A stretch of 58,342 nucleotides of DNA from a phage: the sequence record PZ445426.1; one strand, 5' to 3'. Below are positions 45,203-51,700 of the stretch, in pieces. A program made the translations under genes and the position numbers. The notes beneath the pieces were generated by a model. That model did not search any database. It was not told the origin of the DNA and worked only from the letters and a program-made list of their open reading frames with translations. How positions within the stretch are numbered: the stretch's first letter is position 1; every line of letters starts with the position of its first letter.

Positions 45203-45230
45203 AAAGGGCCGAAAGGCCCTTTATTTATTT
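45203..45230. terminator. bidirectional terminator (AAAGGGCC-gaaa-GGCCCTTT + T-rich)
   Basis: read directly between convergent genes 44974..45198 (+) and 45225..47561 (-). Confidence 0.6.
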
Positions 45231-47561
45231 GCTTAAGTCTTTGAAAACACTCTCAATTGACTCGTCTATATACCATCCCAACCCCCTGAAATTACGCTTC
45301 AATGCATCCTCACGCGTAACCGGAACAAGCGCGCCCATATCTACAAGTTGTTTGATAGTGAGGTCTGTTGCAGTACCTGCTCCCATCCTGTGATTCTTGA
45401 ATGCTGCTAGCCCGTAGGTTCTGCGTGTGATAGTTGCCTTCGGAATAATACCGTCAACGCGCAGCTCCTTACGATCACATGCAATTTTACCGCCAAGATA
45501 GTCTTTGCAGACCTGACAGATAGCCTTCACACGCGTTTCATCATCACCGCCAATAGTACCTTTTTCCCATGCGTTGATCATGATGTCCTGCCCATGCGTG
45601 ACAAAATCTACCGCCCATTGCATGTGATTGGGTTGAACGACAGGATTGATCCAGTTTTCCCCCACTGCTAACAGGGAGGCGAGACGCAGAGCTTTAAGGT
45701 GAGCACGGTTCCACGGCTGACGAATTGCTTCGTCTTTTGTTGCGTTAATGTGTTCATCGCACAACAAGTTAAACTCCCGCTCAATCCTTGCAGCTTCCGG
45801 GCTTAACTGGACGGTAACGGTCTGAAACTTTGCCATTGTCACTAACGTGTGGTTAACAAGATGACAGACCATGTCCTTTAATTGTTGGGGCATTGTAATT
45901 TCAGGATTCTCGTTTGCAGGAACACGATCCCCTTCATATTGCACAATGTGGAAACGGGACAAGAAACCGTCTTCCATCATTTCACGTGTTAACGCTTCAA
46001 AGAAGGTGTCTGGTGTTGTTTCGCCCAGCACGCTGAACGCCACCCCTTCCATCGTTTTGGTATTATTAGCCTTATCAGAATATCCGATACCGCCAACAAC
46101 ATCCATCGCACCAGATTTTTGATACACATCTGTGATAGTTTGCTTCAGGGTATAGTTTGCAGTGCCAGGTTGAGCCGTTGCCATACCTTTAATGGTTTTA
46201 CCAAACTCACCGTTAATATTCACAAACGAAGTGTGATCCGCAAAACTTTTACGCAAGGCAGGACCGGAAGCATAGTTAGTCATGTCTACAAATTCATGCA
46301 CTTGCGGTAATTGCTCCCCTACTTGCTTACAGATATAGCTGGGCCCAGCGTGAAGCATTTCTTTGCCCACACCTGATCGGGCAATGAGCACAAAGTAACC
46401 GTTCAACCCTGTGTTGGTGATAGTATTCCATACCTTACCGCACACACCAGACAGAAATGCTAACGATGCGGTGATTGCAATTTCTTTAACCGGACGTTGC
46501 GATGCTTTGTAGATGTACTTCGCAAGCTCCCCAGCAAGCCCCGGCGGCCACTCAATAGCGGTTGCATCAATAGACGTACTTTCTGCGACCACTATTTCAC
46601 CAGAAGGGCTAACTGTGGTTACAGGCATCTCTGTTACTTGCTGCATTGTGCTGTGTGCTGCTTGCATACGGGCAGCGTAATCCCGCGCCAGCGCCGCTAC
46701 GTTTTCCTGGGCAATGCGCTCACGCTCCATGCGACCTCGACACATACGCAAGCAACGGTCAATATGAACATTGTTCTTATTAGCCTTCTCACGTTTGCCC
46801 AGTGCACTGTAACGAAATAAACGGCGACATTGCTCATTACTTTCCGTGTAGAATGCATACATAGAAATAAGGGCAAGGTCTGCTTCAGACTGGGAGGGGA
46901 ATCCCATTTCAACCCATTCACCATTAAATAACCGCGCATACTTATCGCCGTTATCTGCTTCAAGTGCACGCTGGTGAATAGTTGCATCATCTTCTACCGG
47001 ATCTTTTTCTACCAGTTCAATTTCATATGTCTTGCGCTGAAGATCAATTTCATTCACAAGCATAGTAAGGTAATGATCACGTTCTGCAACTGGTTTGTTG
47101 TAGACGGGATTACCCGTGCAGATAATAAAACGCTCCTGACTATAAACCTCGACACCATCACGTCGACGACCTTTACCGATGTTACCTCTTAACCACAGGT
47201 GAACACCCAAGCCTGAGCGACTCACTTCGGTGTAAGTATCGAACGCAGTCATGATCTGTTCGAAGCGGCGCAACTGCTCCGGCGTCGTGTGCTTCTTGGG
47301 ATCAGGTTCATTGGTTGCATTCTTCACATCCAGGTCGATGCAGGTGAACGGGTCTTGTGCAGTAAGCACGAAGCCAATATAAGGTTTATTGAAATGAGCG
47401 GCGCAACCTTTGGCAGCTTCAAACGTCATAAGGATATCCGGATCGGTAACGTCCGCCGCCATCAAACGTCCGATATCGTTGTCCCATACAAGCGGCTTTT
47501 TATCCGCATCGGCCACCGCCCATTGTGGGAAAGCTTTAATTTCAGCGGGAAACAGTTCCAT
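45225..47561 (-). CDS. primase-polymerase (Prim-Pol, AEP superfamily) with C-terminal extension
   Basis: Prim-Pol motifs: CIDLDV (DxD), SRSGLGVHLWL (SGxGxH), ERFIICTGN; 778 aa. Confidence 0.65.
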   Translation of the reverse strand: MELFPAEIKAFPQWAVADADKKPLVWDNDIGRLMAADVTDPDILMTFEAAKGCAAHFNKPYIGFVLTAQDPFTCIDLDVKNATNEPDPKKHTTPEQLRRFEQIMTAFDTYTEVSRSGLGVHLWLRGNIGKGRRRDGVEVYSQERFIICTGNPVYNKPVAERDHYLTMLVNEIDLQRKTYEIELVEKDPVEDDATIHQRALEADNGDKYARLFNGEWVEMGFPSQSEADLALISMYAFYTESNEQCRRLFRYSALGKREKANKNNVHIDRCLRMCRGRMERERIAQENVAALARDYAARMQAAHSTMQQVTEMPVTTVSPSGEIVVAESTSIDATAIEWPPGLAGELAKYIYKASQRPVKEIAITASLAFLSGVCGKVWNTITNTGLNGYFVLIARSGVGKEMLHAGPSYICKQVGEQLPQVHEFVDMTNYASGPALRKSFADHTSFVNINGEFGKTIKGMATAQPGTANYTLKQTITDVYQKSGAMDVVGGIGYSDKANNTKTMEGVAFSVLGETTPDTFFEALTREMMEDGFLSRFHIVQYEGDRVPANENPEITMPQQLKDMVCHLVNHTLVTMAKFQTVTVQLSPEAARIEREFNLLCDEHINATKDEAIRQPWNRAHLKALRLASLLAVGENWINPVVQPNHMQWAVDFVTHGQDIMINAWEKGTIGGDDETRVKAICQVCKDYLGGKIACDRKELRVDGIIPKATITRRTYGLAAFKNHRMGAGTATDLTIKQLVDMGALVPVTREDALKRNFRGLGWYIDESIESVFKDLSK

Positions 47562-47842
47562 TATTTACCTTCGTTAGCAATCACTTTTAACAGGGATGTA
47601 ATCACATCCTTAACTTTATCAACAGTGCTGAAAGCTGTATCTAACGTGGCATAGGTGCCAATGTACTGATATTCATCCATGACTCTGATAAATGCGCGGT
47701 ATTGTGTATTTCCACCTTTTAATTCTGCCTCCTGATCCACAGGTTCAAAATAAGCGCATACATCCTCAAATTGTCCTTCTCCCAGCCATGGAGCAGGGAA
47801 TCGAATCATCTCTTTACCTATAAATGGAATTTTTCTAGCCAT
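47561..47842 (-). CDS. hypothetical protein
   Basis: ATG 47842 with GGAGG RBS; stop overlaps primase start. Confidence 0.4.
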   Translation of the reverse strand: MARKIPFIGKEMIRFPAPWLGEGQFEDVCAYFEPVDQEAELKGGNTQYRAFIRVMDEYQYIGTYATLDTAFSTVDKVKDVITSLLKVIANEGK

Positions 47843-48134
47843 AAATCTGTTTCCTCCGCCATTCTTCATATGCTGAATTATTTGCATCGTATACTTCGCA
47901 AGCGTCTTTCATGCTGTCATACAGTCCAAGGAAAGTTCGCCTTGTTTCTCCGCCTACGTCTACCCATGTTAATCGGGCGAGCCATTTACCCGTTTTGTGA
48001 TCGAAAGTAACGCCCTCACGCCCGCTTACATTTTCCCGCGGCACTCGGGGCTTTCGGCGTGCGAGCCCACGACCTTTGAAATTACTGCCCGGGACAGTCC
48101 TGCACTTACGACCCACGACCAACCTCCGGCACAA
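47835..48134 (-). CDS. AP2-like DNA-binding domain ORF (no ATG start; possibly fused to upstream HTH ORF)
   Basis: GVTFDHKTGKWLARL...LGLYDS resembles an AP2 domain; track start is TTG and overlaps the HTH ORF in another frame. Confidence 0.3.
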   Translation of the reverse strand: MCRRLVVGRKCRTVPGSNFKGRGLARRKPRVPRENVSGREGVTFDHKTGKWLARLTWVDVGGETRRTFLGLYDSMKDACEVYDANNSAYEEWRRKQIYG

Positions 48135-48321
48135 CCCGACCAGCGTGCAACATCAAGATAGGTTCTGCAACTTCGCGCACGTAAACGTAAACGTTAGCAA
48201 TCTTAACTTCGCCCGGCAGCTTACCGCGAAGCGAACATAATTTGCGACGGCTAAGACCGAAGCGGTTTTCAATTTCTGATGTGGTTATGTATTTAAGATC
48301 AAATTCTTTTTGATGGTCCAT
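48106..48321 (-). CDS. helix-turn-helix DNA-binding protein
   Basis: 71 aa; ITTSEIENRFGLSRRKL resembles an HTH; AGGAGG RBS. Confidence 0.45.
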   Translation of the reverse strand: MDHQKEFDLKYITTSEIENRFGLSRRKLCSLRGKLPGEVKIANVYVYVREVAEPILMLHAGRVVPEVGRGS

Positions 48322-49155
48322 ATCTACCTCCTAACAGCACTATACACAATACATAGTAAGACAGCCACAATTATTCCACACGAAGTTATGATGTGAGCGG
48401 ATTGTTAATATATAACCACATGTGATGGAAAGTTTTGGGTAGGAATAGTTGGTGCTCCACAGTTTGCACAATGTGACGGAAAGTTTTGTGAGTTTTGCGA
48501 AGTTTTGCGAAGTTTTGTGGTGCCACTGTTGCTAAAAACTTTAATAAAAACAATAAGTTGGTGCAGTAAGTTTTTGCGTTTTGGGGTAAAACGCATTTTT
48601 TACCCTAACACCCAAATCCCGACTGTTAGTAAAAAACGTATATAAATCAATAGGATAGATACTAAATGAATAGTGGATGGAATGGGTAGAAATCCAAATG
48701 ATGGAAGTGGAATAATTTATTCCTACTTGATAGAATAATGGAATCGGTACTCCAGAGCGCAAAAACCTAAAACTTTCAGTCAACAGACTAAAAACGGATA
48801 GAAACTAAAAGTTAATAAGTAATACCATAAATATATATAAAATAAGGATTTATTAGTAATGTATATAGTACCTATTGGTATTATTTGAATGTTTTTGGGT
48901 CACTGTTAAAAAGTCCCAAAACTCACAAAAAGTGAAAGAATACAATTCGTGACAGGATTGTTAATGAAATATGGTGTATGGATATACAGTATTATTCCAG
49001 ATTCCGGAATAATTGGAATAATGGAATAAATTATTGAACTATTGTAATCGGAAGGTATATCAAGCTATAATGCGCTTAATCGCGGGATATTGGAGGAGGA
49101 CTTTATTGCGCGGTTAACCGGACCAGTAGGAGGGCTGGCCCGGAGAAGTTAGAAT
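48322..49155. promoter_or_regulatory. 830-bp AT-rich non-coding region with iteron-like and inverted repeats (candidate replication origin / early control region)
   Basis: no credible ORF; multiple short direct and inverted repeats read directly. Confidence 0.45.
48427..48520. repeat. array of five (G)AAGTTTTG(C/T)G direct repeats
   Basis: GGAAAGTTTTGGG, GGAAAGTTTTGTG, AGTTTTGCG, AAGTTTTGCG, AAGTTTTGTGG read directly. Confidence 0.6.
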
Positions 49156-49332
49156 TTATTTGCGGACGAATACAGAGCCGACAAATAATGTTGACTGAGT
49201 AGCAGCTTGCTCGATTAATTCGCCAACAAGCTGGGACTGCGTCAGAGGTTTAAGGCCTTCTTTGGCGCGTGCTTCATTTACACGGCGCTGAAGGTCTTTT
49301 AGGTATTGAGTTGCGAAGCTGTCTAATTGCAT
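49156..49332 (-). CDS. small hypothetical protein (58 aa, below ORF-track cutoff)
   Basis: ATG with perfect AGGAG RBS; hand translation MQLDSFATQYLKDLQRRVNEARAKEGLKPLTQSQLVGELIEQAATQSTLFVGSVFVRK. Confidence 0.4.
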   Translation of the reverse strand: MQLDSFATQYLKDLQRRVNEARAKEGLKPLTQSQLVGELIEQAATQSTLFVGSVFVRK

Positions 49333-49378
49333 TTTCGTTACTCCTAGGGCTCCCGCAGAAGCCCGTTGGTTGATGTGG

Positions 49379-49513
49379 TTATAGAACGCGCCAGTTAGTT
49401 ATTAAACCTTGTGCGAGCATAAACTTGCCAGTTTGCTCCGCGTCGTAGAGGTTATCGAAAAGTTCTTCTACTTCCCAACCGCTACCGAAATATTTTATTT
49501 CTAAAGTGAACAT
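49379..49513 (-). CDS. small hypothetical protein (44 aa, below ORF-track cutoff)
   Basis: ATG with AGGAG RBS; hand translation MFTLEIKYFGSGWEVEELFDNLYDAEQTGKFMLAQGLITNWRVL. Confidence 0.35.
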   Translation of the reverse strand: MFTLEIKYFGSGWEVEELFDNLYDAEQTGKFMLAQGLITNWRVL

Positions 49514-49566
49514 ATTAAACTCCTTTGCTGTTAATGATATAATTATAGGTCAGTTTAAAGGAAAGA

Positions 49567-50112
49567 TCAAGCATCTAAACCATTATACTTGCGCCAGGCG
49601 TAGAACTGAATGGCGACCGTTGTCCCGTTGTAAGAAGGCATTGCCGCTTTCATTTCTTTCAGCTCCGGCGTGCGGCCCAGTTCGGCTAAAAGTTTATCGC
49701 CCATTGCCCACACTTCGGCGGTTTTTCCTTTGAGAGGCTTGCGAGCGCCATTTTTGAAATCACAGCGAGCAGCTTTTGCGTGTTTCATATCTTTCTCTTC
49801 CTCCTGCTCCAGAGCTTCGAGGCAGCTTTTGACGATTTCCGGATTTACCATCGGGCGCAGTACCGAGACGCTGGCAGCTGGCGCGGCGGTCGGTGCCGGG
49901 ACTTTCTGCTCCGGCTGTTGCGCTTTTTTATAGTCGCGCAGTACCTGAAGCACTTCCTTCTCGACGATGTAAAAACCAATCTCATCCTGATGGATTAACT
50001 GCTCGTGTGCATCGCGTGCAACCTGGCCCCAGCGGGTCTTAAGGGCGCGGCGTGCATTCGTTTTCATGGTGTAACGCATTTTATCCTGTTCGCGGTGAGT
50101 TACTTTAGACAT
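49567..50112 (-). CDS. hypothetical protein
   Basis: 181-aa ORF near the start of the minus-strand early operon. Confidence 0.45.
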   Translation of the reverse strand: MSKVTHREQDKMRYTMKTNARRALKTRWGQVARDAHEQLIHQDEIGFYIVEKEVLQVLRDYKKAQQPEQKVPAPTAAPAASVSVLRPMVNPEIVKSCLEALEQEEEKDMKHAKAARCDFKNGARKPLKGKTAEVWAMGDKLLAELGRTPELKEMKAAMPSYNGTTVAIQFYAWRKYNGLDA

Positions 50113-50198
50113 GGTATATTCCTTCTGTTAGATTGTTTAGTAGTCTTGTTAAGTTGTACTTATTATTGCCCACTAAGTTGAAGTAGGCAAGATATAAA

Positions 50199-50762
50199 TC
50201 AACTATTTCTGATATTCTTTAGAGCTTGTGTACAAAAGAAAACATCCAGCAAAACAAGTTTTCCGTCTTTTACCGCCACATTGCGGGGACTGATTTCAAA
50301 CCACATTTGCGGACCAATATTAGCGCAAGCATCCAAAGCTTCCAGGAGCACATCTTTAATGTCTTGAGCCAGGTCGCTATTACTGAAAGCATCATATAGA
50401 TAGCTATAGTTGTCATATGTGTTACGCGGCATCTCTAACCCTGCGCACAAGCTGCGGAGTTGTTTATAGAGTGCGTATTGCTCAGGTTGTAAAGCGCTTT
50501 TTAAGCTGCGGACACGAGGGTAATACTCCATTTCGTAGACACCTGTGTCTATCATTGTGACATGGGGAAATAATTCATGCTCAGGAAACCATCCCCATGC
50601 CATGCATTCTTTAATAGGGTCGCAAGATTTTAGAAGTACGCAACCTGAGTCCAGAAGGTATGCCTTAGTGAAAGCGCCCTTGCCAATTAGTTTAGTAGCC
50701 ATGTTGTGCTCATTAATGTGGTTAAGCAGTATTGCTTTGTTGAAGTAATAATAGCCTTGCAT
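50199..50762 (-). CDS. hypothetical protein
   Basis: 187-aa ORF; first gene downstream of the divergent control region; start uncertain. Confidence 0.45.
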   Translation of the reverse strand: MQGYYYFNKAILLNHINEHNMATKLIGKGAFTKAYLLDSGCVLLKSCDPIKECMAWGWFPEHELFPHVTMIDTGVYEMEYYPRVRSLKSALQPEQYALYKQLRSLCAGLEMPRNTYDNYSYLYDAFSNSDLAQDIKDVLLEALDACANIGPQMWFEISPRNVAVKDGKLVLLDVFFCTQALKNIRNS

Positions 50763-51160
50763 CGTGATATTGAATAGGCCAAAAGTGCTATTTTAGATCA
50801 CTATTACATCTACAGCTTTGCAGTAACGCTACGCTAAAAATGCAAAGTCTTACGTTTGCTAAACATGTAGATTTTGTGCACATCACTCTTAGTACGTATA
50901 ACGTCTATTATGTTAAATAGCTAAGTTATTGATTTATGGTAAATCTTGTATCAATTCGGACGTTATAGGCGTCTAACATATTGATTTATAAGGATGTAGA
51001 ATTTTGCTGTTTGTAGCGCATAAAAAGGAACAAACCGGGATGTCATAAAATGACATGTGTTTTGTCAGTATAGATGGCACGTTTGGGCTAGACATAGATC
51101 AAGTCATGGCGTACTATATAGTCAAAGGAAAGATAAAGCCGAAAGGCGGAGGAAAATAAA
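50763..51160. promoter_or_regulatory. divergent intergenic control region with 17-bp palindrome ATGTCATAAAATGACAT (51040..51056)
   Basis: about 400 bp between divergently oriented gene blocks; palindrome read directly. Confidence 0.45.
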
Positions 51161-51310
51161 ATGAGAAAGTTTAAAGTCATGTACTACGGTAACTATATTG
51201 GGGACGTTAAAGCTCCGAACCGTGCAGAAGCAGAAGGTTTCGTTCGCGCAGAGATGCGACTTGGAATCGCCGATTTTGCAGCTATTATTGAACTGGTAGA
51301 GGTATTCTGA
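51161..51310 (+). CDS. small hypothetical protein (49 aa)
   Basis: ATG with GGAGG RBS; first plus-strand early gene; below ORF-track cutoff. Confidence 0.4.
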   Translation: MRKFKVMYYGNYIGDVKAPNRAEAEGFVRAEMRLGIADFAAIIELVEVF

Positions 51311-51311
51311 T

Positions 51312-51455
51312 ATGGCACGCAAATATTCGCTTACACGCGCACAGCACGCGTTATTATTGCAGGTTATGCGCATGGAGTACGAAGAGACTACATGGGCGCA
51401 AGCCATGCAAACTGGGCGCGAGTTCTACGCGCAACTAATAGCACAAAATGCCTAG
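51312..51455 (+). CDS. small hypothetical protein (47 aa)
   Basis: ATG 2 nt after the upstream stop; hand translation MARKYSLTRAQHALLLQVMRMEYEETTWAQAMQTGREFYAQLIAQNA. Confidence 0.3.
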   Translation: MARKYSLTRAQHALLLQVMRMEYEETTWAQAMQTGREFYAQLIAQNA

Positions 51456-51514
51456 ACAACATGATCGGTCTGGTGGATACTACACACATCAACAACGCAA
51501 CGGGGAAAAACAAA

Positions 51515-51700
51515 ATGTTAATCTTAATCATGATGGTCATCGCAGTAGTAAGTCCACTGGTAGCACTGATCGTTAGCGAAGTAATGGATGCGAAGTGGGA
51601 TCGTCAATACAACGAAGTAATGGAACAGCGGTATGCAGAGCGCCGCGCACGAAATGGGGAACAGCGCTATAACGCACACAGCGCCACGCTAGCGAGCTAA
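51515..51700 (+). CDS. small membrane protein
   Basis: internal ATG of ORF 51392..51700; hydrophobic helix MLILIMMVIAVVSPLVALIV. Confidence 0.35.
   Translation: MLILIMMVIAVVSPLVALIVSEVMDAKWDRQYNEVMEQRYAERRARNGEQRYNAHSATLAS

Follow-up and report, generated by a model that had tools for sequence, protein, structure and literature searches.

Tandem micro-genes of a Seuratvirus phage: a Druad1-family homologue and a conserved hypothetical gene

Two open reading frames (ORFs) of 58 and 44 codons lie in tandem on the minus strand of the phage sequence PZ445426.1, and they raise the question of whether frames this short are genes and, if so, whether they serve against host defences. The window, by which we mean the whole 58,342-nt stretch that was analysed, holds the 58-aa ORF at 49156..49332 and the 44-aa ORF at 49379..49513, both with an ATG start in the ORF list and separated by a gap of 46 nt, with a 181-aa ORF upstream of the pair. 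A sequence-only reading had pointed to these minus-strand ORFs and to the Shine-Dalgarno (SD) motif AGGAG in front of each. This was confirmed: on the minus strand, the motif stands at 49341..49345, 8 nt 5' of the ATG (49332) of the 58-aa ORF, and at 49520..49524, 6 nt 5' of the ATG (49513) of the 44-aa ORF. Across both strands of the whole window, the arrangement AGGAG-N5-9-ATG followed by 40-60 codons was given by these two ORFs and by no other, while first-order Markov random sequence gave 0.48 +/- 0.67 AGGAG-led ORFs of 40-60 codons per genome. The AGGAG-led pair exceeds the chance expectation.

The window constitutes the genome of a coliphage in the genus Seuratvirus (Queuovirinae). Thirty-four phage records align to the region around both ORFs at 90-97% identity, and all of them are Seuratvirus or evident relatives, including Seurat, CAjan, Bas21/Bas24 (BASEL), SA126VB and Dru_SM1. 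The best coverage of the last 18 kb by any single record does not exceed 84%, so we consider the window a distinct member of Seuratvirus. Structural genes run rightward, starting at position 1, and a long leftward unit that includes the primase (45225..47561) extends from ~50.8 kb to ~23.5 kb, with both small ORFs close to its start. We infer the ‘early’ expression that the sequence-only reading had proposed only from this position and from sigma-70-type promoter matches; a literature search on Queuovirinae transcriptome data found no Seuratvirus transcriptome. The HIDEN-SEQ and Avs2 papers touch on neither ORF, and an Rfam scan of 47800..51600 at E<=1 gave 0 matches.

Regarding the 58-aa ORF, tblastn found the protein in 16 phage records with 96.6-100% amino acid identity. 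Ten of these records annotate it as hypothetical (first as CPT_Seurat64, AIW03927.1) and six leave it unannotated, and the counterpart of the 44-aa ORF is annotated in Dru_SM1. That a 60-aa cutoff had missed the two ORFs is thus true of the method behind the sequence-only reading and not of the literature. The 58-aa gene is intact yet unannotated in MZ501071, MZ501104, MH230177, MZ911962 and OR880647, with Bas21/Bas24 (BASEL) among such relatives, and in a metagenomic contig (L032) it was skipped by an automated gene caller.

We compared the window with 14 fetched loci, which gave 15 copies of the 58-aa gene, all distinct at the nucleotide level and at most ~10% divergent. The frame is intact in 15 of 15, with variable sites distributed 5/5/25 by codon position (25 of 35 at position 3; chi-square p 1e-5) and pairwise dN/dS values against the window of 0.02-0.10. 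The other two frames of the ORF contain 2-7 stops, and relatives carry TAGGAGTAACGAAA or TAAGGATAAGAA(A/G) at the SD site. The 58-aa ORF is a real conserved hypothetical gene under strong purifying selection.

With the 58-aa protein as query, an exhaustive phmmer search of 1.84 billion representatives added two members to the family (P0010 and P0011), both metagenomic and both exactly 58 aa long, with 62% and 44% identity and conservation at the protein level only; two weak matches in very long proteins were disregarded. Residues M1, L3, D4, L11, L14, Q15, V18, N19, R22, K24, L27, P29, L30, Q34, V36, E41, Q46 and S53 are invariant in the family. In a 29-kb metagenomic contig (L029), the 44%-identical homologue is preceded by a 178-aa protein whose homology to the 181-aa protein of the window spans its full length (pairwise E 3e-7). 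The exact 58-aa protein occurs in 101 contigs, a scan of IMG/VR with the family profile returned one near-identical locus, and tblastn with P0010 and P0011 led back to the same Seuratvirus records only. The protein is mildly basic (pI 9.4), and AF2, run with no alignment, models a helix at 2-24, a helix at 32-45 and a weak C-terminal beta-hairpin (mean pLDDT 79.8). Scans of the protein with Pfam, PHROG and PADLOC gave nothing significant, and the family profile found nothing below E 0.1 among PDB sequences. A Foldseek search with the AF2 model returned nothing significant from the PDB and only Seurat's own protein from BFVD. In the literature we found no mention of CPT_Seurat64.

For the 44-aa protein, tblastn against all phage records at E<=0.01 matched only Dru_SM1 (86% identity, E 5e-19), whose counterpart is annotated as NGRRMQZB_78 (WZK98979.1); the window ORF and WZK98979.1 fall in the same 90%-identity cluster. 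The ORF numbers of Ojima et al. 2024 differ from the GenBank locus tags, and we therefore located the published primers within the Dru_SM1 locus (L004). For ORF71, the deletion primer connects the ATG (L004:2503) with L004:2612 and so removes L004:2504-2611, the interior of the 44-aa CDS. The ORF71 insert of the supplementary cloning table, labelled ‘Anti-Druantia typeI’, is exactly L004:2501-2635. When compared to this cloned CDS, the window ORF is identical at 123 of 135 nucleotides and 38 of 44 amino acids.

ORF71 was named Druad1 in a systematic knockout study of DruSM1, a preprint (bioRxiv 10.1101/2024.04.14.589459). In that work, deletion of Druad1 abolished infection of Druantia type I cells and the plasmid-borne CDS restored infection by the deletion phage. 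Besides, Druad1 expression let other phages infect, and insertion of the cassette into phage KSA8 conferred infectivity (bioRxiv 10.1101/2024.04.14.589459). According to the same preprint, phage DNA carries m6A at AANGA only with Druad1 present, which is a correlative result, and a 2026 review (PMC12904381) likens the Druad1-linked methylation to lambda Ral. The functional data come from this one preprint and the DruSM1 allele, to which the window allele is linked by homology.

The preprint also states that Druad1 has no BLAST homologues, and its ‘DUF6614’ label for the protein was not reproduced by hmmscan even at E<=10 (bioRxiv 10.1101/2024.04.14.589459). Pfam, PHROGs and PADLOC scans of the 44-aa protein gave nothing significant, and PADLOC-DB profiles matched neither of the two proteins nor the neighbouring genes; PADLOC-DB, as a 2023 library of defence-system models, is not expected to include Druad1. 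With a pLDDT of 63, the AF2 model of the 44-aa protein was too poor for a structure search. No inhibitor of Druantia type I other than Druad1 emerged from our searches.

The window gene and Druad1 of DruSM1 share their length (44 aa), SD, promoter-like element and phage genus, and both occupy the slot between the homologue of DruSM1 ORF72 and the GGGCTTCTGCGGGAGCCC stem-loop. They differ by six substitutions in the window allele (G12D, E17D, L18V, D20N, L22R and A34S) and in the downstream neighbour, which is the 58-aa gene in the window and an opposite-strand gene in DruSM1. Full-length homology places the 44-aa ORF of the window in the Druad1 family, as a putative anti-Druantia type I gene. 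The sequence-only reading had placed both ORFs in the size class of host-takeover or anti-defence factors; the anti-defence part gains support for the 44-aa ORF from its 86% amino acid identity to Druad1, and for the 58-aa ORF it is neither supported nor refuted. Lambda Ral, a restriction-alleviation protein known for boosting protective methylation, and Druad1 are both small phage proteins reported to protect phage DNA via methylation and not as enzymes. Ral, however, targets another defence and has no sequence similarity to the 44-aa protein, for which tblastn against all phage records at E<=0.01 gave Dru_SM1 only.

A large protein collection contains 19 distinct variants of the 44-aa protein in two 90% clusters, all exactly 44 aa long and all on Seuratvirus-like contigs, of which there are dozens in total; the exact protein of the window is found in at least 24 contigs. 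A word-indexed search of 5.8 billion proteins, with single sequences and with a 16-member Druad1 profile, returned close relatives only. The protein is acidic (pI 4.25) and of 5.2 kDa. Seven nucleotide alleles show variable sites of 7/3/16 by codon position (p 0.006) and pN/pS values of 0.17-0.29 for the four alleles with a differing protein sequence, with the power of these selection tests limited by the near-identity of the cassette across many contigs. The alternative frames contain stops, and AAAGGAG upstream of the gene is kept in 20 of 20 loci with the gene despite diverged surroundings.

Both ORFs therefore behave as the real micro-proteins that the sequence-only reading had taken them for: they keep frame and length, third-position bias, low dN/dS and a conserved SD, and for the 44-aa family there is in addition the published complementation by the cloned CDS alone. 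Among relatives, the frame of the 58-aa gene is intact in 15 distinct versions and all 19 variants of the 44-aa protein are full length.

Most of the variation across the 19 variants falls at positions 12, 17, 18, 20, 22, 34 and 43. There are two main haplotypes in the family, and residues are invariant in blocks 1-11 and 23-33. Between the window and Druad1, we counted 5 nonsynonymous and 0 synonymous differences in codons 12-22, and 1 nonsynonymous and 6 synonymous in the remaining codons (Fisher p 0.015), a clustering that is only suggestive because the patch was chosen post hoc.

Phage morons are independent promoter-gene-terminator units inserted between conserved genes, a concept that comes from the comparative genomics of lambdoid phages. 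The 44-aa gene appears to be carried on a moron-like cassette of this kind, composed of a promoter-like element, the SD, the ORF and a stem-loop. Its candidate sigma-70-like promoter, TTGATC-N17-TATAAT (49542..49570, minus strand), agrees with the consensus at 10 of 12 positions, has a -35 element that overlaps the stop codon of the 181-aa gene and is the joint best match in a 3.8-kb scan. The form TTGAT(C/G/T)-N17-(T/G)ATAAT, with its 17-nt spacing, is kept in three allele groups with differing spacers, the other groups having TTGAT(G/T)-N17-GATAAT with a different spacer sequence. As in morons, the Druad1 cassette is polymorphic by presence and absence and has its own promoter-like element and a stem-loop at the 3' end. 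In contrast to them, it resides in a virulent siphovirus and not in a prophage, and its stem-loop is without a U tract in the window.

The stem-loop GGGCTTC-TGCG-GGAGCCC (49347..49364, minus strand) lies between the two ORFs, where it forms the right boundary of the cassette slot and adjoins the SD of the gene that follows. All relatives have it in near-invariant form, whatever cassette precedes it and whatever gene comes next, be it the 58-aa gene, a 108-aa gene, a 118-aa gene or an opposite-strand gene, and the 46-nt intergenic segment that contains it (49333..49378) folds at -13.9 kcal/mol (z -2.1). In DruSM1 (L004:2636-2700) and a metagenomic contig (L023), the stem-loop behind Druad1 leads into a T-rich tract, beyond which lies a convergent opposite-strand gene of 109 or 143 aa that has no family match; there, to judge from these features, it could be a bidirectional terminator. 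In the window it is without a U tract and is followed by the SD.

A second stem-loop, CCGGGCCAG-N8-CTGGTCCGG (49118..49143, minus strand), is found just 3' of the stop of the 58-aa gene; it is terminator-like, again without a U tract, and the 56-nt segment 49100..49155 that holds it folds at -16.8 kcal/mol (z -2.7). SA126VB and SA80RD have a rho-independent terminator annotated at this place, and a generic terminator scan did not report the stem-loop at 49118..49143. Given that neither has a U tract, the stem-loops of the window may fail to terminate transcription. Orthologues of CPT_Seurat64, for example ODDIEODDIE_69 and SA126VB_70, likewise stand behind the ORF72 homologue and the intergenic stem-loop. 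They differ in what comes next: in the window, SA126VB, SA80RD and phiG7 a stem-loop directly follows the gene, whereas Seurat and others have the 108-aa gene. Absent from about half of the related phages, the 58-aa gene is dispensable, and since DruSM1 is among those that lack it, it stood outside the DruSM1 knockout screen.

The slot itself runs from the stop of the 204-aa gene, the form of the 181-aa gene found in relatives, to the TCTATAACCAC boundary and the stem-loop, and is fixed across the junction alignment. We observed presence and absence of the cassette at this fixed junction between collinear genomes. The slot is either empty (51-55 nt) or filled by a 37-aa ORF (172 nt), a 49-aa ORF (~207 nt) or the Druad1 cassette (227-236 nt). 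The 37-aa ORF, which is hydrophobic, occurs in SA80RD and phiG7 and the 49-aa ORF in CSP1C (L009:2333-2446, L014:2332-2445 and L011:2303-2452), all of them ending at TAA-TCTATAACCAC. The piece that the preprint authors transplanted into KSA8 is the Druad1 cassette in the same slot. Downstream, the 58-aa and 108-aa genes likewise come and go independently among relatives. Searches of 48600..50200 against a plasmid collection and of 49150..49575 against complete E. coli genomes found no match, so a host or plasmid origin of the cassette is not evident.

What surrounds the pair is also informative. The 181-aa gene (49567..50112, minus strand), 86% identical to the 204-aa protein of relatives, has an in-frame 23-residue deletion in the low-complexity linker of the 204-aa versions, and we recognised it as the homologue of DruSM1 ORF72 through the published primers and the cloned CDS. 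The preprint describes DruSM1 ORF72 as anti-BREX type I, a result accompanied by complementation, and deleting it had effects on AVAST type III and qatABCD as well (bioRxiv 10.1101/2024.04.14.589459). On the other side, the protein of a 71-aa ORF (phrog_11967; 48106..48321, minus strand) shares 54% identity over 56 residues with DruSM1 ORF68, and phage deleted for ORF68 was less infective on BREX type I cells (bioRxiv 10.1101/2024.04.14.589459). With homologues of ORF72 and ORF68 nearby, both small ORFs lie in a stretch that is experimentally rich in anti-defence genes in the sister phage. A 99-aa ORF with a TTG start is also found in this part of the window (47835-48134, minus strand), with a weak AP2-domain match and PHROG matches to C-terminal parts of HNH endonucleases; the corresponding place in DruSM1 and SA80RD holds a 175-aa HNH endonuclease, and the ORF may be a homing-endonuclease remnant.

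Directly downstream of both ORFs is an AT-rich, ORF-poor stretch (48330-49100, ~830 bp, GC 25-38%), which bears five of the nine GGAATAAT copies of the window together with other short direct and inverted repeats; the tandem does sit beside a repeat-rich region, as the sequence-only reading had said. DruSM1 mutants deleted for the pseudo-ORFs PH_ORF75 and PH_ORF76 could not be recovered, and deletion of the neighbouring PH_ORF77 was viable (bioRxiv 10.1101/2024.04.14.589459). The PH_ORF76 deletion aligns with the AT-rich stretch of the window, and PH_ORF75 starts at its edge, where the phages diverge. According to these results, 48330-49100 may hold an origin or another essential cis element. 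We rejected the 58-aa protein as the cognate binder of the GGAATAAT repeats, since repeats and gene do not co-occur.

Taking these observations together, we think it probable that both ORFs are genuine genes in an anti-defence-rich accessory part of the leftward unit, the 44-aa ORF as a Druad1-family cassette and the 58-aa ORF as a conserved accessory gene. Host RNA polymerase would start at the sigma-70-type promoter (49570..49542), the strong SD would drive translation of the acidic 5.2-kDa protein, and the conserved stem-loop would close the cassette. By homology with DruSM1 Druad1, the 44-aa protein would then neutralise Druantia type I of the host. As 44 residues cannot be a methyltransferase, we infer that it acts by binding another protein, and its partner might be a component of Druantia or a methyltransferase that is re-directed as by lambda Ral. 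The 58-aa gene is probably translated from read-through or a co-transcript, because relatives without the 44-aa cassette leave no room for a separate promoter. Our best guess is that its product, a helical hairpin by prediction, would be another protein-binding accessory factor of the island, possibly working with the anti-BREX ORF72 homologue.

One could argue that one or both ORFs are chance frames in a regulatory spacer, in which the promoter and the stem-loops are the conserved features. Short frames are indeed common here, with 58 ORFs of at least 25 aa overlapping a 4-kb stretch; a random genome would be expected to have around 0.5 AGGAG-led ORFs of 40-60 codons, and the near-identity of the 44-aa cassette among contigs limits the selection tests. 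However, third-position bias, low dN/dS and invariant length hold for both ORFs, the alternative frames are full of stops, the distant 58-aa homologues are kept at the protein level only, and the bare Druad1 CDS behind a vector RBS complements the deletion. These data largely refute chance frames, and we regard them as extremely improbable. Far harder to set aside, although still the less likely case, is that the 44-aa protein belongs to the Druad1 family with another specificity (another Druantia variant or another defence) or is inactive on Druantia type I of the Gao library. The differences from the tested allele would then sit in a diversifying surface patch at codons 12-22 (5 nonsynonymous and 0 synonymous), and variation across the 19 variants is focused on few positions, with two main haplotypes. 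The patch was picked after seeing the data, though, and the numbers are small; moreover, 38 of 44 residues are identical, including the invariant blocks 1-11 and 23-33, and the gene has the same genomic slot and regulatory signals as Druad1.

Regarding the 58-aa protein, its place next to the AT-rich stretch brings up a small DNA-binding regulator (ribbon-helix-helix-like or similar) of the adjacent repeats, which might be an origin or promoter region. The gene lies directly upstream of a repeat-rich AT-rich stretch in three diverged lineages (the window and SA126VB type, and L028), and in L028 a terminator and TCGAACTATTG repeats follow it. The mildly basic protein (pI 9.4) has an RHH-like ‘G..(S/T).S..’ pattern, and its top PDB fold match is the RHH domain of RelB. 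This fold match, however, is insignificant (E 6.3, probability 0.06), AF2 makes the N terminus helical (2-24) with no strand, and Pfam RHH gave no match even at E<=1. Besides, the GGAATAAT repeats are found in Skure, which is without the gene, and not in SA126VB, which has it, and many relatives carry the 108-aa gene between the 58-aa gene and the repeat region. Since GGAATAAT and the gene do not co-occur across relatives, nearness to the repeats amounts to no demonstrated functional link, and we find a DNA-binding role quite improbable. A more speculative extension of the accessory-gene reading, which we would not expect to hold in full, is that the slot after the ORF72 homologue is a hot-spot for swapping tiny anti-defence genes. 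In it, the stem-loop and TCTATAACCAC would serve as recombination linkers, the residue 12-22 alleles would be specificity variants shaped by an arms race with differing Druantia systems, and the 37-aa, 49-aa and 58-aa proteins would be further anti-defence micro-proteins, the last possibly a partner of the ORF72 homologue.

The window thus adds a new allele to an anti-defence family that was described recently, together with an ordinary conserved hypothetical gene, and no new kind of system. Druantia type I gave the broadest protection among the systems that the preprint authors tested with 263 coliphages (bioRxiv 10.1101/2024.04.14.589459). Druad1, its inhibitor reported without homologues, is part of a small family whose 19 natural variants, all of 44 residues, have two main haplotypes and an invariant core. 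Functional micro-genes such as these are dropped by ORF length cut-offs and gene callers, as seen for the 58-aa gene in six of its 16 GenBank records. The 19 variants are a ready-made mutational map for studying how a protein of 5 kDa overcomes a helicase system of five genes, a map that is useful for choosing or engineering therapeutic Seuratvirus phages.
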